Assembly (NCBI GenBank): GCA_035697465.1
Contig: DASSCW010000189.1
Location: 1-28,737 of the forward strand
Origin: Candidatus Limnocylindria bacterium
GTDB taxonomy: Bacteria > Chloroflexota > Limnocylindria > QHBO01
Direction of reading: 5' to 3'
DNA: 28,737 nt
Positions 1 to 13,780 of this stretch are shown here, one piece after another. Numbering within the stretch: the stretch's first letter is position 1; every line of letters starts with the position of its first letter. Made by a program: the position numbers and the translations under genes. The notes beneath the pieces were generated by a model. That model was not told where the DNA came from. It saw nothing but the letters and a program-made list of their open reading frames with translations, and ran no database searches.

Positions 1-2
1 GG

Positions 3-557
3 TTCGATGGCTACTCGACCGGCATCCGGCAGAAGTTCGCGATCGCCCGCGGCATGCTGACGGAACCGAGCGTGCTGTTCCTCGATGAGCCGACACGCGC
101 GCTGGATCCCATCGCGGCCGACGAGCTGCGGCGGCACGTCGCCGAACACATCGTCGGGGACCTCGGGCGTACCGTGGTGCTTGCGACACACACCCTCACC
201 GAAGCTGAGGCGATCTGCGACCGAGTCGCGATCATCAGGCGTGGCCGCATGGTCGAGATCGGAACCATGGATGAGCTTCGCCATCGCATCGGACTATCCA
301 CTGTCCTTGAACTGACGGTCAGCGGTGAGTTAGCACCCATCCGGAACGCAATCGGCCGGGTCAACGGCGTTGCCTCCGTGTCCGACGCCGTGGACGACGA
401 CGCATCGACCCAGCTGATCGTCAGCCTCTCCGACGTGGAAGGGGCGACGGACCAGGTGATCCGTGTTGTGCACGCGGCAGGCAGCGTCATCCAGGCGATC
501 ACCACCCGCCGGCCGACCCTCGACGACATCTACCGCGCCGCGCACGCTGAAGGTTGA
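3..557 (+). CDS. ABC transporter ATP-binding subunit, 5'-truncated by the window edge; probable exporter of the lasso cluster
   Basis: Open frame from nt 3: FDGYSTGIRQKFAIARGML (signature-like), Walker B VLFLDEP, H-loop ATHTLTEAEAICDRV. Followed directly by an ABC-2 permease. Confidence 0.9.
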   Translation, partial: FDGYSTGIRQKFAIARGMLTEPSVLFLDEPTRALDPIAADELRRHVAEHIVGDLGRTVVLATHTLTEAEAICDRVAIIRRGRMVEIGTMDELRHRIGLSTVLELTVSGELAPIRNAIGRVNGVASVSDAVDDDASTQLIVSLSDVEGATDQVIRVVHAAGSVIQAITTRRPTLDDIYRAAHAEG

Positions 558-558
558 G

Positions 559-1380
559 GTGCAGTTGATGGAAGGGTGGCCGCGTGTCCTGGGGGCAACG
601 TTCCTGCGGGACATGTGGACGGCGACCAGCTACCGCGCGGGGTTCATCCTCTCCATCGGCGGATCGCTGGCGAGCATCCTGAGCGTCTTTTTCATCGGCC
701 AGGCCTTCGGAGCCTCGGTCAGCCCGTCCTTGGACCAATATGGCGGCAGCTATTTCGCGTTTGCGGTCGTCGGCGTCGCCTTCTCCGGCTTGCTGGGGCT
801 GGGACTATCGGGAATCAGCTCGCGGATTCGCGAGGGCCAGATGATGGGGACGCTGGAGCTGATGCTGTTGAGCCCAAATCGGCTGTTGGTGCTGCTCATC
901 GGCGCATCGCTGTGGAGCCACGCCATGGCCATCTTCTCGCTCGTCATCTACCTGCTGGTTGGCCTTGCTTTGGGCCTGGACCTCGGGCAGGCGAATGTGC
1001 CGATGATGCTGCTGTCCCTGGCAGTCTCGGTCATCGCCTTCAACGGGCTGGGGCTCCTCGCGGCCAGCGTGGTGATCGTGATCAAGCAGGGGAATCCGGT
1101 CAGCCTCATCGTCGGCATGGCGTCCGTCCTCCTGGCAGGAGTCTTCTATCCGGTCAGCGTCCTGCCAGGGTGGCTGCAGGTCCTCGCGCAACTGCTGCCC
1201 CTGACCCATGCGCTGGAGCTGGTCCGCCGATCGGCACTTACCGGCGAGGGCATCGAAACCTTGTCCGGGCACCTGCTGGCACTGGTCGCACTGAGCGTCA
1301 TTCTGGTGCCACTCGGGCTGTGGGCATGCCATCGCGCGGTGACGTTCGCCCAGACCGACGGCTCGCTCTCGCAATACTGA
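559..1380 (+). CDS. ABC-2 type transporter permease (about 273 aa)
   Basis: About six hydrophobic segments; REGQMMGTLELMLLSP and LAGVFYPVSVLPGWLQVLAQLLPLTHAL are typical ABC-2 permease motifs. Start GTG559 or ATG568, just after the ATPase stop. The track start at 463 overlaps the ATPase. Confidence 0.88.
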   Translation: MQLMEGWPRVLGATFLRDMWTATSYRAGFILSIGGSLASILSVFFIGQAFGASVSPSLDQYGGSYFAFAVVGVAFSGLLGLGLSGISSRIREGQMMGTLELMLLSPNRLLVLLIGASLWSHAMAIFSLVIYLLVGLALGLDLGQANVPMMLLSLAVSVIAFNGLGLLAASVVIVIKQGNPVSLIVGMASVLLAGVFYPVSVLPGWLQVLAQLLPLTHALELVRRSALTGEGIETLSGHLLALVALSVILVPLGLWACHRAVTFAQTDGSLSQY

Positions 1381-1390
1381 GAAGAGGACA

Positions 1391-2332
1391 ATGGACGGAG
1401 GCGAGGGCGGGGTGCCGCAGCCAACGCTTGGCAGCTGCGCCGGATACGAGGTCCGCTCGTCGAACGTAGGATTCCGCACGCTCAGGTCGGGTGGCGGCGA
1501 GCCGATGCTGGTCCATGGCGGCGACGATCCGCAGATCGGCGGGGAGGTAGTCGCCACCTGGCGCCCGCGTCCGGGCAACCCATTCCATGGCCGCCTCCTG
1601 CAGGATGGGGGCATCTTCCACTTCTGGGCAAGCGACGTCGGCTGGTACACCATCGATGCGCAGCACCGCACGATCACCATCTCGGGGGACGTCGACATGC
1701 TGCAGACGGAGCTGCGGCTCTTCGGGATCCCCGCCGCAATCTGCGCTTTCGAGTCTGGCGATGCGCCGCTCCACGCCTCGGCAATCGAAATCGACGGGCA
1801 GGCGATCATCCTGGCCGGCCCGAGCAGGCAGGGGAAAACGACGCTGGCGGCGGCCTTCGCCGCGCACGGGCATCGCCTGCTGTCCGAGGACACGACCCGC
1901 TGCGTCCCTGGCCGGGTCCCATCGGCTTTCCCAGGGCCAGCCGTCGTGCGACTGCGCTCCGACGTTGCCGGCTTGCTCGACATTCCGACGGCCACGGCAC
2001 TGCCGACGAGCTTCGAGGACGGACGGACGGCGTTCCTGTTCGACGATGCTTCGCGTGGCTCGGGTGCCGCTCTGCCCTTGCGCGCGATCCTTATGCTGCG
2101 GCCCGGCGAGGGTCCGCCGACCTTGCGGTCAGTGGACTCGGCGCGGGCGGCGCGGGATCTCTTCTCGCTGGCGTTCCGGTTGCCGACCGACGCGTCCCGC
2201 GCGGCGTGTTTCGCCCGCGTGGTGGACCTCGCCGGTCGCGTCGAGGTCATGGACCTGCATCGACCCATCACCATCGATTCGCTGCCGAGCGTCATTTCGC
2301 TCGTCGAGCGGCATCTGGAGGGCGGGGCCTAG
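1391..2332 (+). CDS. HPr-kinase-like P-loop kinase (PadeK-type lasso peptide kinase candidate)
   Basis: LHASAIEIDGQAIILAGPSRQGKTTLAAAFAAHGHRLLSED: His, Walker A and an acidic pair as in HPrK-like kinases. GAGGA RBS before ATG1391. Lies inside a lasso cluster. Confidence 0.82.
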   Translation: MDGGEGGVPQPTLGSCAGYEVRSSNVGFRTLRSGGGEPMLVHGGDDPQIGGEVVATWRPRPGNPFHGRLLQDGGIFHFWASDVGWYTIDAQHRTITISGDVDMLQTELRLFGIPAAICAFESGDAPLHASAIEIDGQAIILAGPSRQGKTTLAAAFAAHGHRLLSEDTTRCVPGRVPSAFPGPAVVRLRSDVAGLLDIPTATALPTSFEDGRTAFLFDDASRGSGAALPLRAILMLRPGEGPPTLRSVDSARAARDLFSLAFRLPTDASRAACFARVVDLAGRVEVMDLHRPITIDSLPSVISLVERHLEGGA

Positions 2333-3649
2333 GTGCCCGAGATCGCCTCGGTGATCGCCACTCTCGCCGACATTGGCGTCGAGCCGCTTGTCCTGAGCGG
2401 CCAGCGTCCGGAAGACGCCGAATCGGCTAAGCAGGAACGTGGGATCCAGCTTTTGATCCGCCGGGCCGATGTGCGTGCCGCGACGGCTGTGCTGGAGCCG
2501 CAGCCATGGCGCTACTCGTGGATTCGGCGGGGGCTGATGCGACTGGTGCCGATGGTGGACTACTGGTGGGACGGCGGCGCCTTTATCGAAGCGTACTGGG
2601 GGCTCCCCGCCGCCCCACTGCCGCCGATCGCGCTGGCACGGCTGGCGACCGCGCTGTGGAGCCGCGCCGAGAAGGACCCCGTCGGCTACTGGCGGCCGGA
2701 TGTGGCGAGCCTGGCCGTTCACTACGCCGTGCAGGCCTGTCGGCCCGGTCGCGGGCACGATGCCGATTGGCGCCACTTCGTCAACCTCAGGTCGCAGCTT
2801 GCCGACCTGTCCGCGGCGAGCGCCATCGCTCGCCAGGCCGGAGTGGCATCCGCATTTCGGCGGGCAGTGGCTGCGGCCGATGCCGGCTCGGGGCCGCCGC
2901 CGCGGGGACCAGTCTTCGACGGCCCGCTGGGAATCGCGTGGTGGTGTACGACGGCGGTGCAGGCACGCCTCCGTCCTCGGCGGCTGGCACGCATCCTCGC
3001 CGGCGTGCCCTCGCTCGGCGACGCGCCGATTCGCTGCCGGGTGGCGGGCACCGAGGTCGTCGCGGACACCGGGGTCTTCGTGCCTACCCCGGACGCCGAG
3101 ATCTTCGTGGACATGGTCCGCAAGCGCGTCGCTGGATTGCCGCGACCGAGGATTGTCGAGGTCGGCACCGGCTGTGGGGCGATTGCCCTGGCCATTGCCA
3201 ATGCCAGGCGCGACGGGGTGGTCCATGCCGCCGAGATCGACGTCGGCGCGGTCCGCTGCGCGCAACGGAACGCGGAGCGGCTCGGGCTGCACGACGTCGT
3301 CGTTTCGCGCGGGTCGCTGCTCGAACCGGTCTCGAGCGAGCTGGTCGGAGGCGTGGACGTCGTGATCGCGAACCTGCCCTTCTATCCGGCGCGCAATTTC
3401 GCATCGATCGGATCCGTTCCGCGCGACACCATCCAGGGGCCAGGGGACGACGGTCTCGACCTCGTTCGGCAGCTGGCAGCCGACGCCCGACGGTACCTGC
3501 GTCCGGATGGATGGCTGATCCTGCAGATGTTCGCGTGGCAGGTCGAGCTGTTGACCGATGAGCTGAAGCGAATGGGTTACGTGCCGGGCAATCCGCGGTT
3601 GTCTGGGCCATTCGCAATCTGGCCGATGGACTATCGCCCGGGTGCCTGA
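2333..3649 (+). CDS. Fusion protein 1: degenerate nucleotidyltransferase-like N-terminal domain plus HemK/PrmC-like SAM-dependent methyltransferase
   Basis: C-half has VFVPTPDAE, IVEVGTGCGAIALA (motif I), AAEID (motif II) and IANLPFYP (NPPY-like). N-half has GVEPLVLSG, GIQLLI, IEAYWGLP and SLAVHYAVQ, echoing the NTP_transf_5 pattern. Starts immediately after the kinase stop. Confidence 0.78.
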   Translation: MPEIASVIATLADIGVEPLVLSGQRPEDAESAKQERGIQLLIRRADVRAATAVLEPQPWRYSWIRRGLMRLVPMVDYWWDGGAFIEAYWGLPAAPLPPIALARLATALWSRAEKDPVGYWRPDVASLAVHYAVQACRPGRGHDADWRHFVNLRSQLADLSAASAIARQAGVASAFRRAVAAADAGSGPPPRGPVFDGPLGIAWWCTTAVQARLRPRRLARILAGVPSLGDAPIRCRVAGTEVVADTGVFVPTPDAEIFVDMVRKRVAGLPRPRIVEVGTGCGAIALAIANARRDGVVHAAEIDVGAVRCAQRNAERLGLHDVVVSRGSLLEPVSSELVGGVDVVIANLPFYPARNFASIGSVPRDTIQGPGDDGLDLVRQLAADARRYLRPDGWLILQMFAWQVELLTDELKRMGYVPGNPRLSGPFAIWPMDYRPGA

Positions 3650-3678
3650 TCGCGGCCGCCCAGCGCACCGCTCTGGCG

Positions 3679-4125
3679 GTGCCAATCGACATGAGGCACT
3701 ATTCGGCCGTGCTCACGCGATCCGACGACGGCCTCTCACTGCTCGCCAAGCTCAGCCTGCTCTGGCGCGTCTGGGCTGTCGCCGCACGGGTGCGGCTTGA
3801 GCTGTGGCGCCATCCGCTGCCTGAGGTCGTCTCTGTCCTCGCCGCGCCAACCGGTCGCCCGCGTGTCCCCACCTCGCTGCTCAGCCGGGCAGTGTCGCGC
3901 GGACTGCGGATCGGTCCGCTCCAACCGCGCTGCCTCACGCGCAGCCTGGTCCTCTATCGCCTGCTGCGCGCGCAGGGCGACGATGCGCAGCTGATCATCG
4001 GCATGCGCGACAAGACGGTCTCCACCGACGCGCACGCGTGGGTCGAGCTGGCCGGCCGCGACGTCGGACCGCTACCGGGTGGGAAAGGCTACCGCGAGCT
4101 GAGCCGGTATCCACGCAGCCTTTGA
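3679..4125 (+). CDS. Lasso peptide B2 protein (transglutaminase-like leader peptidase)
   Basis: CLTRSLVLYRLLRAQG...IIG...AHAWVE (catalytic Cys and His, Transglut_core3-like). Start GTG3679 or ATG3691. Confidence 0.88.
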   Translation: MPIDMRHYSAVLTRSDDGLSLLAKLSLLWRVWAVAARVRLELWRHPLPEVVSVLAAPTGRPRVPTSLLSRAVSRGLRIGPLQPRCLTRSLVLYRLLRAQGDDAQLIIGMRDKTVSTDAHAWVELAGRDVGPLPGGKGYRELSRYPRSL

Positions 4126-5450
4126 CTGAAGATTCGGCGGACTCGTCCTCGTCCGACGTCACCTCACTCATTCGCGTCCTGCGCGACGTCGGCGTTGACG
4201 CCCTGGTCCTGCGGTCCGGCGCCATCAACGACGCCGGCGTATTTCGCCCGCTCCAGCTCCTCGTACCGGAATCCGGGCGAAGAGACGCCGTCGCAGCACT
4301 GGATCGCATGGCCTGGCGCTACGCGTGGGTACGCACGGGACTGCTGCGGCTCACGCCCGGAGCCGTCTACGCCTGGGATGGGGGACGCGTCGTCGAGCTG
4401 TACTGGAGCCTGCCCGCCGCGCCGTTACCGGCATCGGCCCTGGCCCGCCTGACCGCTGCGCTCCGCCGGAGCGCACGGCGAGGGCCGGATGGCTACCTGC
4501 TGGCGGATCCGTCCGCCTTGTTGGTGCACCTCGCCGTCCAGTCGTGCCGGCCCGGCCGCGCGCGCGCGGGCGATTGGGCAGACTTCTTGAGTGCGGCCGC
4601 GACCAGTGAGGACAAGCACCAGGTACGCAAGCTCGCGCGAGGGGCGGGCGTGCGGCCGGCGCTCGATCGCGCCCTGGCTGCGGCGGCTGCCGGGCGTCAG
4701 CGGCCCGGGCCGGGCCGTACCTACGGCGCGGGCTGGGACGTCGCGCGCCTTGTCGCAAATGCGATGCAGGCGCTGGCGCCACGCTCGGTCGCCCGCCAAC
4801 TGGCGGGCTCGCCGATCTTCGGCGACAGCCCCATCCGTTGCAGAATCGGCGGAGTCGAGGTCGTCGCCGATCCGGGCGTCTTCGTGCCGGCGCCATCAGG
4901 GGAGCTGTTCCTCGACGAGGCCCTCGCCGCGTTGGGCAGCATCAGCGAGCCACTGGTGGTCGAGGCAGGAACCGGTTGCGGCGCCATGGCCCTGGCAGTC
5001 GCCAAGGCACGGCCCGATGCCACCCTGCACGCCACCGAGCTGTCGCGCGCGGCGGTGCGTTCGGCGCGCCGCAACGCGTCACGGCTCGGCGAGCTCCGGG
5101 TGAAGTTCTATGAAGGGTCACTATTGACGCCACTGCCGAGCTCGCTCGGTGGGCGGGTGGACCTCCTCATGGCCAACCTCCCCTATGTGCCCGAGGGGGA
5201 GGGCTTCACCCTTGGGGCGTTGCCGCCTTCGACCCTGACCGGCGTGGAAGAGGACGGGCTCGGCCTCCAGCGCCAACTCGCCCGATCGGCGATCGGCGTC
5301 ATCCGGCCGGGTGGCAGGCTTCAGCTCCAGATGCTGGCCTGGCAATGGTCACGCCTCTCGCCGGAGCTCGCGGCCCTCGGCTATCGACCCCTGGCCCCAC
5401 GGCTCTCCGATGCTTTCGCCATCTGCCAGGCAGAGCTGATCGCGGGCTGA
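4122..5450 (+). CDS. Fusion protein 2: paralog of 2333-3649 (degenerate nucleotidyltransferase-like domain plus HemK-like methyltransferase), about 442 aa
   Basis: VFVPAPSGE, VVEAGTGCGAMALA, ATELS, MANLPYVP; N-half GVDALVLRSG, PLQLLV, VELYWSLP, LLVHLAVQ. Colinear with fusion 1. TTG4122 overlaps the B2 stop (TTGA) and aligns with the paralog start; the track gives 4038. Confidence 0.78.
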   Translation: MTEDSADSSSSDVTSLIRVLRDVGVDALVLRSGAINDAGVFRPLQLLVPESGRRDAVAALDRMAWRYAWVRTGLLRLTPGAVYAWDGGRVVELYWSLPAAPLPASALARLTAALRRSARRGPDGYLLADPSALLVHLAVQSCRPGRARAGDWADFLSAAATSEDKHQVRKLARGAGVRPALDRALAAAAAGRQRPGPGRTYGAGWDVARLVANAMQALAPRSVARQLAGSPIFGDSPIRCRIGGVEVVADPGVFVPAPSGELFLDEALAALGSISEPLVVEAGTGCGAMALAVAKARPDATLHATELSRAAVRSARRNASRLGELRVKFYEGSLLTPLPSSLGGRVDLLMANLPYVPEGEGFTLGALPPSTLTGVEEDGLGLQRQLARSAIGVIRPGGRLQLQMLAWQWSRLSPELAALGYRPLAPRLSDAFAICQAELIAG

Positions 5451-5470: not shown

Positions 5471-5764
5471 TCAGGCGGCGACGTGAATCAGATCGCGCTG
5501 CACCGCGCTCTCCACGAAGCGCCGCACGTCGGCCTCGAGTTCCGGTGGGCCATCGGCTATGAGCGCGCGCACAGCAGCCACGAGGTCTTCCAGGGTCCGA
5601 TCCTTATCCAGCAGGACCCAGATCGCGAATCCCAGCTGGTTGAGCTTGTGATACGCACCCGTGTCGAGATGGAGGAGCACCCCGCCGCCGGCGTCGGACA
5701 GCTCACGCGCGACGACCTGGGGATTGCGTGTCAGGGTCGATTCAGGTTCCACCGTCGGCTCCAT
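5471..5764 (-). CDS. PqqD-family RiPP recognition element (lasso B1)
   Basis: RNPQVVAREL...GVLLHLDTGAYHKLNQLGFAIWVLLD...TLEDLV...DVRRFVESAVQRDLI is a typical PqqD/RRE pattern. ATG5764 overlaps the cyclase stop (TGATG); alternative GTG5770. Confidence 0.9.
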   Translation of the reverse strand: MEPTVEPESTLTRNPQVVARELSDAGGGVLLHLDTGAYHKLNQLGFAIWVLLDKDRTLEDLVAAVRALIADGPPELEADVRRFVESAVQRDLIHVAA

Positions 5765-7557
5765 CACCACTGTGCCAGGAAGGCCTGGGCCACCGCCAGG
5801 TTACGTGCCCATCGGTAATCCAGGGTCGTGAAACGCTCCGACTCGAGCAGCGTCGCAAGGCGCCCGTAGTCGACGCCACCCAGGCGATGCTTCGGCGCGC
5901 CCAGCAGGCGACGGAGGGCAGCGTAGTCGACCTCGGCCATGTGGGCTTCGTCGAAGACAGTCTTATCCCGGCGGTCCAGGATCTCGTCCGGAACGCGGCC
6001 TCGGAGCAGGTCGCGCACCAGACCCTTTGGCCGGAGGTCCGGGAACTTCTGCTCGGCGGGGATCGAGAGGAAGAATTCCCACAGGTCCACGTCCGTCCAG
6101 GGCTTTCGCGATACCACGCCCGACACGTCCTGGCAGACCTCCTCCGCCTCGAGCGAGATTCCGGGACCGATGAAGCCCACCAGTTGGGATCGTCGCCACC
6201 GGTCGCGGACGCGGGGGACGTCGGTGTCCGCCGCCCGCCGGCGGTCGATCCAGTCGGGAACCACCGCCGGCCTGGTCCGAGCTCCGATCGAATTGCGGGC
6301 CGCCATCACCCGATGGGGCATGAGTGAGCGGATCACGAGGCGGGTCAGCGCCCACCACGTCCAACCCCGCGTGCGGCGCTCCGCCAGCTCGCGCCTGGCC
6401 GGAGACCATCGGCCGCGCAGCAGGTAATGCTCAAGGGTGTACCACTGCATTGCGGCGACGAATTCCGCGTGCTCACCGGTGAGCACCCGCCGCGCGCCGA
6501 GATTGCGCGCGTGGACATAGCTCTCCTCGTACTGCGCCAACGCCGCTCCGGGCCACGGCGTGTCGGCGAGGCCCACCCACCGCTCGATGTCGTCGAGCGC
6601 GTTGGCGGACAGCTCATAGGTGTGCAGAGGTATCGAGAAGGCCCTGGCCAGGATCTCCACGTATCGGCTCTCGTCGACAGACGGGTACCGCGGATAGACG
6701 GCCGAGATCGCCTGCAACTCACGTCCCGCCATCGCCCGGTGTCGGGGCGCCGCGAACGCCGCGATCGCCGGGGAGTCGATGCCACCGCTGAGGGAGATGG
6801 CGTCGCGACCGGTCAGGACGCGACTGACCGCCTGATCCATGAGCCGGGTAAAGTGCTCGGCGATCTCCGCCTGCCGATAAGTGGCAGATTCCAGCAGCGC
6901 CTCCGGCTGCCAGTAACGTGACAGCGTGGTCGCGCCCTCCTCGGAACGGACGGTCGTCGACTTCGGCAGGCGGCGGACGCCCACCAGCGACGCCGGCATC
7001 TCGTCGTCGACGTCTCGGTAGAAGATGCGCTCCACGACGTCCAGGTCCGGCTGCCGCGGGAGGGATGCCCCCGCGACTACCTGCTTTGCCTCGCTGGCCG
7101 CCATGAATCCGCTGGCGTCCTCGCGGAAGAACAGTGGGCGGTAGCCGATGTGATCGCGGAAGCACAAGACGGAACGCCCGTCGCTGATGCCTGCAGCGAA
7201 GACACCCCGCATGCGGGCCGGCAGCTCCGCGCCGAAGCGGTGGAATCCCGCCGCCAGGAGCTTGGCGATATCGATGGAGCCGCCGGCCGCTGCGTGCCCT
7301 GAGCCGTCCGGCCATAGATCGCGCGCGAGATCGACCGCGTTGTCGAGGGAGCCTGTGAAGGCGACCGCAAGACCATCGTGGACACCGACCCAGGCATCTG
7401 GCTCCGCGTGGTTCCCCGTCCTCGCCGCCATGGCGCAGCGTCCGAGGACGAGCGTCTGCACCTCCGTGCCGCGGTGCGGAGCGGCATCGATCATCCGCGT
7501 CGCGACGACACCGGGGTCATCATGGAGCGCTGACAGGAAGACTGCGATTGCGCCCAC
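5764..7557 (-). CDS. Lasso peptide cyclase (asparagine synthetase-like isopeptide-forming C protein), 597 aa
   Basis: MRGVFA..., RDHIGYRPLF, ATP-binding SLSGGIDSPAIA, SRKPWTD. The N-terminus MGAIA lacks the AsnB Cys nucleophile (MCGI). Flanked by the precursor and the RRE. Confidence 0.9.
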   Translation of the reverse strand: MGAIAVFLSALHDDPGVVATRMIDAAPHRGTEVQTLVLGRCAMAARTGNHAEPDAWVGVHDGLAVAFTGSLDNAVDLARDLWPDGSGHAAAGGSIDIAKLLAAGFHRFGAELPARMRGVFAAGISDGRSVLCFRDHIGYRPLFFREDASGFMAASEAKQVVAGASLPRQPDLDVVERIFYRDVDDEMPASLVGVRRLPKSTTVRSEEGATTLSRYWQPEALLESATYRQAEIAEHFTRLMDQAVSRVLTGRDAISLSGGIDSPAIAAFAAPRHRAMAGRELQAISAVYPRYPSVDESRYVEILARAFSIPLHTYELSANALDDIERWVGLADTPWPGAALAQYEESYVHARNLGARRVLTGEHAEFVAAMQWYTLEHYLLRGRWSPARRELAERRTRGWTWWALTRLVIRSLMPHRVMAARNSIGARTRPAVVPDWIDRRRAADTDVPRVRDRWRRSQLVGFIGPGISLEAEEVCQDVSGVVSRKPWTDVDLWEFFLSIPAEQKFPDLRPKGLVRDLLRGRVPDEILDRRDKTVFDEAHMAEVDYAALRRLLGAPKHRLGGVDYGRLATLLESERFTTLDYRWARNLAVAQAFLAQW

Positions 7558-7632: not shown

Positions 7633-7779
7633 TCAGCTCGCGAACGGGTGCGAGAACTCCCCGTACTTGTCGGTTTCCATCACGATTTCAGACTTGTCGC
7701 CCTTGCCGGGATTGTCGAACGTGTGATCGGCGATGGACCCCAAGTCCTCGATCTCCGGCGCCTGGTAGATGATCTGCAT
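7633..7779 (-). CDS. Lasso peptide precursor, 48 aa: leader MQIIYQAPEIEDLGSIADHTF, predicted core DNPGKGDKSEIVMETDKYGEFSHPFAS
   Basis: Translated by hand (below the ORF-track cutoff). AAGGGGAG RBS 6 nt upstream; YxxP leader motif; Gly then Thr at -2; Asp7/Glu10 acceptor candidates; C-terminal Ser. Sits directly upstream of the cyclase. Confidence 0.88.
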   Translation of the reverse strand: MQIIYQAPEIEDLGSIADHTFDNPGKGDKSEIVMETDKYGEFSHPFAS

Positions 7780-8356: not shown

Positions 8357-9553
8357 ATGACTCTTCGAGCGAACGCGCCACGGGCCAAGCGCCGCTGGAC
8401 GGCGCTGTTGGCGGCAGTTTCACTGCTTATCGGCCTAACGACGACCACTGTGCTGGCAGCACCTCCGGGCATCAGCCTCGAGCAGTGCCGCAACGGTTCA
8501 GCAGCCAGCCCCAATGACTGTGAGGACCTCGGTGGGTCGGCAGGATGGGTCAACGGTAACGTTGGCGCATCGCAGGGCCACCTCCTGGAAGGTTATTCGA
8601 TTCCTTATCGCGCCCTGATGAACAACCTGCCAGCGAACACCAACATCACCGTCACACTTGGCTATGACATCACCCACAGTGGTGCGCATGCCATCGACTA
8701 TCTGACCCACTACGACCGGCTTGAGCCGCATGGCTTCTTTGGCCACGGCGACGCCGAGGATGTCTTTCCGGTATCGGGCACCAGCGTTAGCGCGACCCCC
8801 TTCGCGACTCTTGCAATTCCGGAGCCGTCGAATCTATCGGCCGACGCCAGCGCCGGATGGGCCAATATTCCTGCGGAACAGAAGGTCATCACACTCTTCG
8901 GTGGCACCTTCCCGGCGAGCCAGCCTACGTTCTATGTCACCGAGGGCGACATCAACGCCTCGCAGTCGGAGGCTCGTGTTCAGTTCACGTTCCTGACTGA
9001 CAGCGACGGAGGTTCCGCTGTCCTGGCCTGGGGTGGACATATCGCCCGCGGCGATCATTGGGACGGCGATTCGGCCTCTGCGATCAGTGGCTCTCCGTAC
9101 CACATGCGTTTGAAGGCTTGGACTCTCGGCAACGTGGGTAACCAGGACCGCTCGCTGTCGGCAGGAGCTGTCCAGGTCGAGACCTCGACGACCACCACCC
9201 AGCCATCAGCCCAACTTACCTTCAGCGTTGCACTCAACGATCGCGCAGATGTTTCTGCCGGTGGTGGGACGGTTGAGTTCAACCTGTGGAGCACCAAGAG
9301 CGCGGATACTCCTCCGGTCTGCTCGGGGTTGCTGTACACCGAGACCGTCGCCCTTAGTGGCGGATCGGCAACGACGACTGGGACCGGATCGTTCGGCAGC
9401 AACGTTGTCGCACCGACTAGTGCAACAACGTACTACTGGACGGCGGACTACTCGGGCGACGACACGACAGAACCTTCGTCATCGCCTTGTGGCGCGGAGT
9501 CTGTCACCGTCACGCCTCCGACCATTGGACTGGTGCCTGCCCCGGCGCCCTAG
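8357..9553 (+). CDS. Secreted protein (398 aa) with a Sec signal peptide and a C-terminal Ig-like beta domain
   Basis: AAGGAG RBS; basic N-terminus, hydrophobic stretch, ...TVLA|APP; LEQCRNG...C disulfide pair; Ser/Thr/Gly-rich beta character; C-terminal TVEFNLW...C...YYWTADYSGD...PCG. Ends before a hairpin terminator. Confidence 0.75.
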   Translation: MTLRANAPRAKRRWTALLAAVSLLIGLTTTTVLAAPPGISLEQCRNGSAASPNDCEDLGGSAGWVNGNVGASQGHLLEGYSIPYRALMNNLPANTNITVTLGYDITHSGAHAIDYLTHYDRLEPHGFFGHGDAEDVFPVSGTSVSATPFATLAIPEPSNLSADASAGWANIPAEQKVITLFGGTFPASQPTFYVTEGDINASQSEARVQFTFLTDSDGGSAVLAWGGHIARGDHWDGDSASAISGSPYHMRLKAWTLGNVGNQDRSLSAGAVQVETSTTTTQPSAQLTFSVALNDRADVSAGGGTVEFNLWSTKSADTPPVCSGLLYTETVALSGGSATTTGTGSFGSNVVAPTSATTYYWTADYSGDDTTEPSSSPCGAESVTVTPPTIGLVPAPAP

Positions 9554-9864: not shown

Positions 9865-9894
9865 TTGACTCGTGTAGTTCGAAAGTACTAGGTT
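9865..9894 (+). promoter_or_regulatory. Promoter TTGACT-N18-TAGGTT with operator-like copy 3 (TAGTTCG-AA-AGTACTA, 9875-9890)
   Basis: Near-twin of 7982-8011; directly upstream of the LuxR-type regulator gene. Confidence 0.6.
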
Positions 9895-9964
9895 GCCCGG
9901 ACCGAGCACCTCCGCTGCCCATCCTCGGCTCGCGTTGCCAACCTCAACCCTGGGGGACGAGGCC

Positions 9965-10834
9965 TTGATCCGCACCGGGCTGGGACAGCGAACCGCTGGA
10001 AGCCTACGAAACGCCATCGATAGCCGCTGGGCACGGCTGGTGGCCGATATCGCCCCTCAGTTCCTCGCGTTGGCCGCCGCGGCGACGATCTACGCGTTCG
10101 GACCTCCTGTTGACGCGCAGCGCGATGTGTGGGTGTGGGCAGTGCTCGCGGTCGCCTTCGCGGGACTGCGCCTGGGCACTCTGCGCACCGCCCTGGTCAC
10201 CTCAACGTATGTCCTGGACGCGGTCGGCGTGGCGATCTTCATCGGTGGCACTGGCGACGCGGAATCGCCATTCCTCGGCATCGCCCTGGCGGGGGCCTGG
10301 TGGGCGTCACAGAAGGCCGCCCGCGGTACGCTGTACGCCATCGCCTTCGCCGCTTCCTACAGCATCCTGGTGGCTCCGGCGGCGCTGCGCGAGGGACACC
10401 TCGCGGCCGTCATCTTCCAGCCCACCCTCCTCTGCATCGTCGGACTGCTGGCAGATAGCCTGCGCGCGCGCGGCGATCTGTCGCGATGGGCCTTCACCAT
10501 CCTCACCCATGAAGGGGAGAGCCAACCGGCGTCCGTCAGGGTCGGGCTGAGCCGCGTGGTCCGCGGTGGGTCGGTTCCCATCGACGTCCTGCTGACGGCC
10601 GGCCAGTTGGGCCTGACCGCGGCCCAGACGGAGCTCGTTGCGTACCTCATCCTCGGCTTGTCGAACATGCAGATTGCCGAGGCGCTCAGCCTCAGTGAGG
10701 CGACGGTGCGCTATCGGCTTACTCGGCTGTACCGCGTCCTTGGCGTGCGCGGACGAAAGGCAGCAGCGGAACGAGCCCGCGAGCTGGGCCTCGGTGATCT
10801 CGTGGGGTCCGGAGGCGGGCCAGCCGCTGTATAG
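9965..10834 (+). CDS. Membrane-anchored LuxR/GerE-family HTH transcriptional regulator
   Basis: About five TM segments, including IGGTGDAESPFLGI, then LTAAQTELVAYLILGLSNMQIAEALSLSEATVRYRLTRLYRVLGV (GerE HTH). Start uncertain: track TTG9893 overlaps the predicted -10; TTG9965 has an upstream GGGGACGAGG. Confidence 0.8.
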   Translation: MIRTGLGQRTAGSLRNAIDSRWARLVADIAPQFLALAAAATIYAFGPPVDAQRDVWVWAVLAVAFAGLRLGTLRTALVTSTYVLDAVGVAIFIGGTGDAESPFLGIALAGAWWASQKAARGTLYAIAFAASYSILVAPAALREGHLAAVIFQPTLLCIVGLLADSLRARGDLSRWAFTILTHEGESQPASVRVGLSRVVRGGSVPIDVLLTAGQLGLTAAQTELVAYLILGLSNMQIAEALSLSEATVRYRLTRLYRVLGVRGRKAAAERARELGLGDLVGSGGGPAAV

Positions 10835-12379: not shown

Positions 12380-13780
12380 CTAGCGGCGGACGGTCGTCTC
12401 CTGGCCGTCAGGCGTGTCGCGCACCTCCACTCCCAAGGCGGCCAGGTTGTCGCGGAGCTGGTCGGACGTGGCGAAGTCACGGGCCGCGCGCGCGGAGGCG
12501 CGCTCGGCGAGCATTGCGGCGGCTCCTTCCGGCAGCTCGGTGATCTCCTCCTCGGCGGGAGCGTCAAGGCTCAGTCCCAGCACCCGGTCGAAGTCGAGCA
12601 GCAGGGCGCGCCGCTGGGCGGCGCCGAGGTCATCGGCACCTGCCACGGCATGGGCGATTGCCAGCGCGGCGGGGATGCCCAGGTCCTCGCTGATGGCATC
12701 GGTGAACCGCGCCCGGTAGCCCGCCATCGGCTCAGCCGAGAGGTCGACCGCGGATGCATCGGCTTTATCGGCCTCAGCGGCAGCCCGTCGCAGGCGCCGC
12801 AGCCCGGAGGTTGCGGCAGACATGGCGTCGTGGGTGAAGTCCAGCTTGGACCGATAGTGGGCGGTCAGCGCCAGGTACCGGAAGGCGAGTGGCTCGAATC
12901 CGAAGTCGGGCAGCTCGTTGACTCGGATGACGTTTCCCGCCGACTTGGCCATCTTGGCATCGGCCAGGGTCAGGAACTCGCCGTGCATCCAGACGTTCAC
13001 GACGGGATGCCCGGTCACGCCTTCCGACTGCGCGATCTCGTCCTCGTGGTGCGGGAACTTCAGGTCGATGCCGCCGGTGTGGATGTCGAACCGATCGCCA
13101 AGGAACTTCATCGACATCGCCGAGCACTCGATGTGCCAGCCGGGAAAGCCGTCGCCCCAGGGTGACGGCCACTTCATGAGCCGGCCAGGCTCGGCCGCCT
13201 TCCACAGGGCGAAGTCCTCCGGATCGCGCTTGTCGGTCTCGACGTCGACGCGGTGCCCGGCCCGCATCTGGTCCAGCCTCTGCCCGGACAGCTGGCCGTA
13301 GCCCGGGAACTCGCTGACGTCGTAGTAGACGTTGCCGTCGACCTCGTAGGCAAGGCCGCGCTCCAGGAGCGTCGAGGTCATCTCGAGCATCTCCGGGATG
13401 TGGTCGGTGGCCTTGGGCATCACGTCGGCGAGCGGCATGTTCAGCAGTCGCTCGTCCTCCAGCCATGCCTCGGTGTAGAACTCGGCGATCTCGGCCGGAG
13501 GCTTCCGCTCCGCCTCGGCCGCCTCGAGCATGCGGTCCTCGCCGGTCTCGCGCATGTGGCCGACATCGGTGATGTTCTTGACGTACAGCACCTCGTAGCC
13601 GAGGTATTGCAGCGTGCGGCGCAGCAGGTCGCCGAACAGGTATGTCCGCAGGTTGCCGATGTGCGCGTAGCGGTAGACCGTGCTGCCGCAGGTGTAGATG
13701 GTCACGCGCCCGGGCGCGATCGGCTCGAGCGGTTCGACCTTGCGGGTCAGCGAGTTGTAGAGGCGCAGGGTGGGGAGCAT
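12380..13780 (-). CDS. cysS: Cysteine--tRNA ligase (466 aa)
   Basis: LRLYNSLTRK, YTCGSTVY, HIGN, NITDVGH, DFALWK, PGWHIECSAMS, DIHTGGIDLKFPHHEDEIAQ, KMAKS. Confidence 0.97.
   Translation of the reverse strand: MLPTLRLYNSLTRKVEPLEPIAPGRVTIYTCGSTVYRYAHIGNLRTYLFGDLLRRTLQYLGYEVLYVKNITDVGHMRETGEDRMLEAAEAERKPPAEIAEFYTEAWLEDERLLNMPLADVMPKATDHIPEMLEMTSTLLERGLAYEVDGNVYYDVSEFPGYGQLSGQRLDQMRAGHRVDVETDKRDPEDFALWKAAEPGRLMKWPSPWGDGFPGWHIECSAMSMKFLGDRFDIHTGGIDLKFPHHEDEIAQSEGVTGHPVVNVWMHGEFLTLADAKMAKSAGNVIRVNELPDFGFEPLAFRYLALTAHYRSKLDFTHDAMSAATSGLRRLRRAAAEADKADASAVDLSAEPMAGYRARFTDAISEDLGIPAALAIAHAVAGADDLGAAQRRALLLDFDRVLGLSLDAPAEEEITELPEGAAAMLAERASARAARDFATSDQLRDNLAALGVEVRDTPDGQETTVRR

Follow-up and report, generated by a model that had tools for sequence, protein, structure and literature searches.

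Lasso peptide gene clusters of the paeninodin/pseudomycoidin type encode a precursor peptide (A) that ends in serine, the proteins B1 and B2, the cyclase C, an ABC exporter and an HPr-kinase-like protein. In the pseudomycoidin cluster of Bacillus pseudomycoides, the D134A/D136A double mutant of the nucleotidyltransferase PsmN is inactive (PMC6993621). PsmN is the one NTP_transf_5-type enzyme of this kind that has been studied. Reviews on lasso peptides from 2021 and June 2026 list as methylations the C-terminal methyl ester and the O-methylation of Asp that leads to aspartimide, and no other. The other modifications listed are phosphorylation, phospho-glycosylation, glycosylation, acetylation, acylation, citrullination, hydroxylation, epimerisation, cross-links, halogenation, prenylation and dehydroalanine; side-chain N-methylation and enzymes of the HemK type are both absent. 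All components of the paeninodin/pseudomycoidin type are found at the left end of contig DASSCW010000189.1 of a Candidatus Limnocylindria bacterium (assembly GCA_035697465.1), the whole 28,737 nucleotides of which are called the window below. In contrast to the known clusters, this one adds two genes for fusion proteins, MT1 and MT2, in which a dead nucleotidyltransferase domain is joined to a HemK-type methyltransferase domain. It differs further in that an intact nucleotidyltransferase is not within the contig and in that the host belongs to an uncultured high-GC lineage with genomes of about 2–3 Mb. The closest relative of the cluster that bears a name is a metagenome-assembled genome of the Chloroflexota.

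The fusion is a real and conserved tailoring-enzyme architecture in a known kind of cluster, undescribed in the searchable literature. With a probability of about 60%, we propose that MT1 and MT2 are S-adenosylmethionine (SAM)-dependent tailoring methyltransferases of a kinase-type lasso pathway, in which the dead nucleotidyltransferase domain docks the substrate. An earlier sequence-only reading of this DNA had not recognised the architecture as described lasso chemistry, and none was found in the lasso literature that could be searched. Queries on lasso peptides with HemK, glutamine methyltransferase or NTP_transf_5, and on PF14907, returned nothing relevant, most subscription journals being outside their scope, so that this absence is no proof. 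Like the fusions, the lassomycin/StspM-type C-terminal carboxyl O-methyltransferases and the aspartimide-forming enzymes that resemble protein isoaspartyl methyltransferase (PIMT; cellulonodin/lihuanodin LihM) depend on SAM, tailor the peptide and have their genes in lasso clusters. The fusions belong to a different family (the StspM type being set apart by description, not by sequence): on the PIMT model TIGR00080 they reach 15.7 bits (E 0.01), the cut-off being 159, and are thus not members. Their accessory domain has no counterpart among the known lasso methyltransferases, and the presence of N-x-P-[FY] makes N-methylation more likely than O-methylation.

The C-terminal halves had been read as PrmC/HemK-like, on which hidden Markov models (HMMs), Foldseek comparison and motif conservation agree. 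Their best HMM matches are TIGR03534 (PrmC; 102.4 bits for MT1 and 94.4 bits for MT2, cut-off 199.1) and TIGR03704 (PrmC-related actinobacterial; 94.3 and 96.9 bits, cut-off 248.8), while TIGR00536 (HemK family) gave 87.5 and 67.1 bits against 115.5, and the best Pfam match is PF05175. None of these curated cut-offs is reached, the scores on the first two models being about half of what is required. A full-length AlphaFold model was obtained from a 48-sequence alignment with a mean predicted local distance difference test (pLDDT) score of 91.1 and a predicted template modelling (pTM) score of 0.87. Foldseek placed its C-domain closest in the PDB to structures of HemK and PrmC, namely 1nv8 (E 2.9e-14) and the PrmC-RF1 complex 2b3t (2.6e-13), with 1vq1 also in the range of 1e-14 to 1e-13; the next neighbours are KMT9/N6AMT1, TrmM, PrmA and a carbamoyl N-methyltransferase, and METTL5 is also among them. 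The domain has the class I methyltransferase fold, the SAM motif and a motif IV of the (N/D)PPY type with the middle Pro changed to Leu. In the 48 family sequences, ExGxGxG, an acidic residue at 301 and N347-x-P349-[FY] are invariant. Since the SAM and catalytic motifs are conserved, the methyltransferase domain looks catalytically competent in both paralogs.

PrmC/HemK enzymes carry out N5-glutamine methylation of the GGQ motif in the release factors RF1 and RF2. These enzymes (TIGR03534; 1NV8, 2B3T) and the TIGR03704-type proteins share with the fusions the class I fold, ExGxGxG, the acidic residue after strand 2, and the N-x-P-[FY] pocket followed by a GDDGL loop. NLPF/NLPY, which the sequence-only reading had listed among the motifs, is neither diagnostic nor a sign of a substrate other than Gln: N[VLA]PY occurs in 27 of 52 single-domain HemK relatives, TIGR03704-type proteins have N[VA]PY too, and a separate PrmC-like gene in the same genome (contig C50:3294-4091, locus L108:1441-2313) reads NLPY. 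The middle proline is therefore dispensable for calling a HemK-family enzyme in this lineage. The C50 protein retains a complete N-terminal domain, reaches 198.4 bits on TIGR03534 (cut-off 199.1) and 178 on the HemK family model (cut-off 115.5), and is 31% identical to the C-domain of MT1. Its presence argues against MT1 and MT2 being the enzyme that methylates release factors. The helical PrmC_N domain that binds the release factor (PF17827) was not matched in MT1 or MT2 in the Pfam scan and is replaced there by a nucleotidyltransferase-fold domain of 225 residues. Unlike PrmC/HemK, the fusions lie in a cluster for a peptide that is made on the ribosome and modified after translation (RiPP) and are patchily distributed.

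The N-terminal halves had been suspected to echo NTP_transf_5, and by HMM, profile-profile and fold comparison they are homologs of that family with a nucleotidyltransferase (Pol-beta-like) fold. PF14907, the Pfam model of NTP_transf_5, was matched by eight of 20 family members (best E 9.3e-9). Alignment of the N-domain profile by hhalign with the intact NTP_transf_5 proteins that related lasso clusters encode (P0130 to P0132, the first of which scores 125.6 bits on PF14907) gave a probability of 77.6% and E 1.9e-5 over 170 columns. KG, DxD and DLHW of the intact proteins are paired in this alignment with SG/RS, GIQ/PLQ and EAYW/ELYW of MT1/MT2. When the N-domain model (pLDDT 84.4) was compared with PDB folds, the leading matches were all nucleotidyltransferases, namely mimivirus poly(A) polymerase (probability 0.98), TglT/MenT3 and LnuA, with CCA-adding enzyme and cGAS lower in the list. 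Against ESM Atlas models, template modelling (TM) scores of up to 0.74 were obtained on clusters that are 100% PF14907. A PDB sequence search with the N-domain profile returned only chance matches to designed helical proteins.

The loss of DxD (GIQ in MT1, PLQ in MT2, with LKG changed to LSG and LRS) was seen correctly, and it extends further than had been claimed, as the positions vary family-wide over 48 members and the third carboxylate is lost too. The first Asp position holds E in 12 members, T in ten and R in six, besides others; the second holds Q (20), D (11), E (9) and others; the third holds E (21), H (12), T (7), F (4) and others, with E in both window copies. On the former active-site strands there is instead a conserved Trp/Arg pattern, WRYxWxRxGxxR and YYWWDGG. 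Because the carboxylate positions are variable and the PsmN mutant lacking two such residues is inactive, the N-domain can be regarded as a pseudoenzyme throughout the family. The identities of both domains and the pseudoenzyme status are well supported. PsmN and P0130 to P0132 are homologous to the N-domains, have the same fold and belong to the same kind of kinase-type cluster (PMC6993621). In two related loci, L098 and L100, an intact NTP_transf_5 gene sits in the slot after B2 that MT2 has in the window. Compared with PsmN, the fusions are without DxD and the third carboxylate, have the Trp/Arg motif instead, and bear the methyltransferase at the C-terminus.

Both open reading frames (ORFs), their coordinates and all motifs quoted for two colinear fusions of about 440 residues around B2 were verified. 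MT1 and MT2 are 47% identical across 426 residues (E 4e-104), with GVFVPTPDAE and GVFVPAPSGE, EVGTGCG and EAGTGCG, NLPF and NLPY, LVLSG and LVLRS, and GIQLL and PLQLL as the corresponding motifs. Their likeness is no accident, since about 90 full-length two-domain homologs, nearly all metagenomic, were found at E 1e-150 to 1e-40 in a word-indexed search. A maximum-likelihood tree was built from 86 members of the family. The two window copies do not group as sisters in it, which points to old paralogy or acquisition and not to a recent tandem duplication. MT2 pairs with P0065 (SH-aLRT support 96) within an eight-member clade (98). In L105 and L106, the two loci of this clade whose context was examined, the fusion follows B2 and the precursor is of the DNPGKGDK type, as in the window. 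MT1 is nearest to P0007, the post-B2 copy of L088, which is the other locus with a B2-flanking pair; the tandem pair of L004 has a separate origin in a deep clade. Orthologs of both window copies are found at 54–60% identity.

As the two fusions come from separate old subclades and both appear to be active, a division of labour is possible, which may concern the site, the methylation state or the stage of the pathway. The more specific proposal of one site per paralog did not gain firm support, for only three positions set the MT2 clade apart from the rest (L228Y/F, T252A, F400L), too few to serve as specificity-determining positions. The idea that two fusions go together with the GKGDK core motif was likewise rejected, as L105 and L106 have the motif with a single fusion.

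The features of the cluster are as follows, B1, C and A converging on the plus-strand genes.

1 to 557, plus strand: ABC transporter ATPase, cut by the 5' end of the contig (matches to PF00005 and DrrA1-3_C)
568 to 1380, plus strand: ABC-2 permease (PF01061, 56.8 bits)
1391 to 2332, plus strand: HPr-kinase-like lasso kinase, P0004 (HprK_rel_A TIGR04352, E 6.9e-10; Hpr_kinase_C, E 0.0016; both below the cut-offs)
2333 to 3649, plus strand: MT1, P0001, 438 residues, pseudo-NTP_transf_5 domain (about residues 1–225) and HemK-like methyltransferase domain (about 235–438), by HMM, profile and fold
3679 to 4125, plus strand: lasso leader peptidase B2, P0003 (lasso_biosyn_B2 NF033537, 54.8 bits, cut-off 33; PF13471, E 4.5e-14)
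4122 to 5450, plus strand: MT2, P0133, 442 residues, second pseudo-NTP_transf_5/HemK-like fusion, by HMM, alignment with MT1 and family tree
5471 to 5770, minus strand: lasso B1, PqqD-like RiPP recognition element (PF05402, 56.9 bits)
5764 to 7557, minus strand: lasso cyclase C, asparagine-synthetase-like (PF00733, 93.1 bits, and GATase_7)
7633 to 7779, minus strand: precursor peptide A, P0129, 48 residues with C-terminal Ser (leader YxxPxLxxxGxxxxxTx; homologous precursors in 11 related clusters)

With its canonical leader, C-terminal Ser, split B1/B2, C and HPr-kinase-like gene, the cluster is of the kinase type, and homologs of the kinase at 40–61% identity hold the same position in related clusters. 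The genes of MT1 and MT2 lie on either side of the B2 gene. MT1 starts with GTG immediately after the kinase stop codon TAG (2330–2332). The longest ORF of MT2 (P0002) runs from 4038, and the public gene call gives 442 residues, from which the start is placed at TTG 4122, overlapping the B2 stop codon TGA (4123–4125). The cluster probably continues past the 5' end of the contig. In the closest relatives, the gene upstream of the ABC ATPase is an intact NTP_transf_5 (L105, L106) or a GT4 glycosyltransferase (L103, L104). A PF14907 search of the genome to which the window belongs (58% complete) found MT2 only; as the slot of the intact nucleotidyltransferase in L105 and L106 is where the contig ends, its absence may be an assembly artefact.

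The wider family is rare and carries the public label 'release factor glutamine methyltransferase'. An exhaustive search with the N-domain profile yielded 152 representatives (clustered at 50% identity), of which 94 have E ≤1e-10, and its weak tail consists of proteins of 340–420 residues, the size of intact NTP_transf_5. A scan of species-representative genomes by full-length alignment was dominated by the SAM motif and returned hardly anything but ordinary PrmC genes, the relevant loci being L006 to L009; a metagenome scan with ten closer N-domain sequences gave 11 loci. It had been asked whether homologs co-occur with RiPP genes, and they do: the fusion lies inside a kinase-type lasso cluster in 19 of 24 informative loci, as a rule with an intact NTP_transf_5 gene next to it. 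The kinase is present in every lasso-linked locus that extends far enough, a true NTP_transf_5 in at least ten and GT4 in two. Most often the genes run kinase, B2, intact NTP_transf_5 and fusion, with B1, C and A converging (L103, L090, L006, L117). L098 and L100 depart from this in having the fusion before B2 and the intact nucleotidyltransferase after it; in L105 and L106 the nucleotidyltransferase is upstream of the ABC genes. A pair of fusions is encoded in L004 (as a tandem, together with an intact nucleotidyltransferase) and, on either side of B2, in L088 and in the window. A second HPr-kinase-like (ScmC-like) gene lies beside the usual one in L098 (13044–13952).

Among the genomes searched, three of the 36 from the same taxonomic family have the fusion, whereas all 24 from sister families lack it, a distribution that fits a mobile accessory gene and not a housekeeping one. 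The genome G011, of the same genus, has a lasso cluster (L119, C4 9503–17787) in which B2 abuts B1 with no fusion between them and the precursor is ordinary. On another contig it has a diverged copy of the fusion (L118, C7 9475–10827; 30–34% identity), directly after an MFS/cNMP-binding gene. Synteny of this unlinked copy with the window was considered and rejected, as the MFS/cNMP-binding neighbours are alike by architecture and the proteins are 26% identical. G011 thereby lends itself to a natural comparison of strains with regard to what the methyltransferase does. In L006 (Chloroflexi bacterium RBG_16_72_14), the fusion gene (819–2147) is spread over three reading frames and the cyclase gene (2493–4282) is in two pieces, which reflects either a decaying cluster or assembly indel errors.

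Twelve related precursors were compared in the numbering of the predicted core. The spacing of the leader YxxPxLxxxGxxxxxTx in P0129 puts cleavage after HTF, in agreement with what had been assumed. The alternative of letting the core begin with the Gly that follows (T/N)P, with a ring of 7–8 residues, was rejected, since the canonical leader spacing fits cleavage after HTF and L105 would be left with no acceptor. The 12 precursors share the leader, Pro3-Gly4, Lys8, a few acidic residues and the C-terminal Ser. From the comparison, it is evident that Lys8 is the sole nitrogen nucleophile invariant in the predicted core (12 of 12). The sequence-only reading had named Asn2, Lys5, Lys8, Lys17 and His23 as candidate sites, a list of which Lys8 stands; Asn2 is present in three precursors only (window, L105, L106), Lys5 is not constant, and the L004 precursor lacks both Lys17 and His23. 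Its statement that the core has no Gln is true for the window and does not extend to the relatives, as eight of the 12 precursors, among them that of the fusion-less cluster L119, have Gln at predicted core position 1, where the window, L105, L106 and L004 have Asp. The ring was compared between the window (7633–7716) and the precursors of L098, L099, L006, L090, L103, L104, L117 and L119. With cleavage after HTF, the window core has Asp7 and Glu10, eight related precursors have Gln first, Thr at 7 and the first acidic residue at 11, and the acidic residues of the L105 core are Asp7 or Glu14 only. A single rule of a 7–9-residue ring does not fit all related precursors.

Characterised N-x-P-[FY] methyltransferases act on nitrogen, be it the Gln amide, Lys or exocyclic base amines. 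As the fold neighbours of the C-domain methylate the Gln amide, Lys (KMT9), a carbamoyl nitrogen or exocyclic base amines, N-methylation is by analogy a reasonable expectation for the fusions, which probably methylate the peptide. The dead domain, a paralog of the PsmN-like NTP_transf_5 that related clusters also encode, would have kept its ancestral peptide binding, standing in for the helical N-domain with which PrmC holds the release factor. Its docking site would most likely be the C-terminal region phosphorylated by the kinase; docking there is the most economical inference, because the N-domain has its origin in an enzyme whose substrate is the C-terminal Ser in phosphorylated form. A nitrogen of the docked peptide would then be offered to the N-x-P-[FY] pocket and methylated. 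The best candidate for this nitrogen is Lys8 of the predicted core, and the second would be Gln1 in the relatives or Asn2 in the window. A fully specified version of the proposal, in which the dead paralog reads the phosphorylated or phospho-glycosylated C-terminus and directs HemK-type side-chain N-methylation (e.g., of Lys8), the two old paralogs installing two distinct methylations, is put forward only tentatively and is more doubtful than the general one. If it is true, lasso peptides would gain their first example of N-methylation on a side chain, and the N-domain would be the first pseudo-nucleotidyltransferase to serve as a RiPP recognition element.

Several observations weigh against the docking methyltransferase proposal. 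In the Pfam scan, PF14907 was not matched by MT1 and was matched by MT2 at 16 bits only (E 0.0096, threshold 31.2). The PDB fold matches of the N-domain are weak, with a best E of 6.8e-3, TM scores of 0.36–0.40 and none at ≤0.001. Five loci (L001, L003, L086, L097, L118) have no lasso gene in the available flanks, and in a Gemmatimonadaceae genome with a partial relative, which is used here for no claim, the cyclase was not matched. The G011 cluster is without a fusion and has an unchanged precursor type, so that the core pathway can do without the methyltransferase, which is hence accessory. Moreover, the link between enzyme and peptide comes from gene context, and the choice of the substrate atom is purely conjectural.

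The kinship with PsmN could also mean that the fusions methylate the adduct on the C-terminal Ser, either the phosphate or a sugar or other moiety added by the PsmN-like nucleotidyltransferase and, in some clusters, by GT4, which the dead domain would recognise. This is consistent with the paralogy of the N-domain to an enzyme acting on the phosphoserine adduct in pseudomycoidin (PMC6993621), with the C-terminal Ser of all 12 precursors, with the kinase in all far-reaching lasso-linked loci and the true NTP_transf_5 (at least ten) or GT4 (two) genes, and with the remodelling of the former active site to a conserved Trp/Arg-rich surface. We nevertheless consider it unlikely, since the true nucleotidyltransferase is not visible in the window, though it possibly lies past the contig end, and the motif points elsewhere. 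All characterised N-x-P-[FY] enzymes considered here methylate nitrogen, and O-methylation of a phosphate or a hydroxyl is, to our knowledge, unprecedented for them. Alternatively, the fusions may spare the peptide and methylate its cellular target or else some RNA or protein in the producer, whether to protect it or to another end, with the N-domain as an RNA- or protein-binding module. About one fifth of the loci are unlinked to lasso genes, the neighbours of the N-domain include the RNA-acting poly(A) polymerase, MenT3/TglT and CCA-adding enzyme, and those of the C-domain include the tRNA/rRNA methyltransferases TrmM and METTL5, with PF05175 as best Pfam match. Still, the PrmC model gives 102 bits compared with 16.8 for RsmC and 23 for RsmA, and the closest kin of the N-domain are the tailoring nucleotidyltransferases of the pathway, not RNA enzymes. 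The cluster already has an ABC exporter, the unlinked copies are interspersed with lasso-linked ones in the tree, and the unlinked copy of G011 shares its genome with a lasso cluster elsewhere, so that methylation of a target other than the peptide appears quite improbable.

It is very unlikely that one or both fusions serve as scaffolds without catalysis or are duplicates in decay. In favour of this, the N-domain has already become a pseudoenzyme, the copy number shifts freely among clusters (0, 1 or 2 fusions), and the RBG_16_72_14 copy is spread across three reading frames; both window ORFs, however, are uninterrupted with all SAM-binding and catalytic motifs intact, both copies have orthologs at the identities given above, and the model confidence is high. 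A housekeeping PrmC or PrmB, methylating Gln of a release factor or of L3 and adjoining the cluster by chance, would account for the top HMM matches to PrmC and PrmC-related models and for the public annotation of the homologs. This reading is hardly credible and largely refuted by the scores at half of the curated cut-offs, the replaced N-terminal domain, the separate full-length PrmC-like gene with its higher scores on TIGR03534 and the HemK family model, and the occurrence of the fusion in just three of the 36 genomes of the family and in none of the 24 of sister families.

Beyond the cluster, about 4.6 kb separate the precursor gene from cysS (12380–13780, minus strand), an interval that holds a 398-residue protein without a Pfam match (8357–9553), a LuxR/GerE regulator (9893–10834) and other ORFs. 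A cysS gene is likewise found near the clusters of L099 (8298–9812) and L106 (13747–15168), where a NUDIX gene and two ketosynthase genes come next; from these surroundings, the cluster occupies a recurring chromosomal site.

If the proposed activity is confirmed, the fusions would provide a new tool for site-specific peptide methylation and an annotation rule for about 100 proteins that are now labelled 'release factor glutamine methyltransferase'. A HemK-type enzyme conserved in about 20 clusters predicts a third methylation chemistry for lasso peptides, probably on nitrogen. With an active nucleotidyltransferase and its dead fused paralog as neighbours in many clusters, the family would also represent a case of enzyme-to-adaptor evolution within a biosynthetic pathway.

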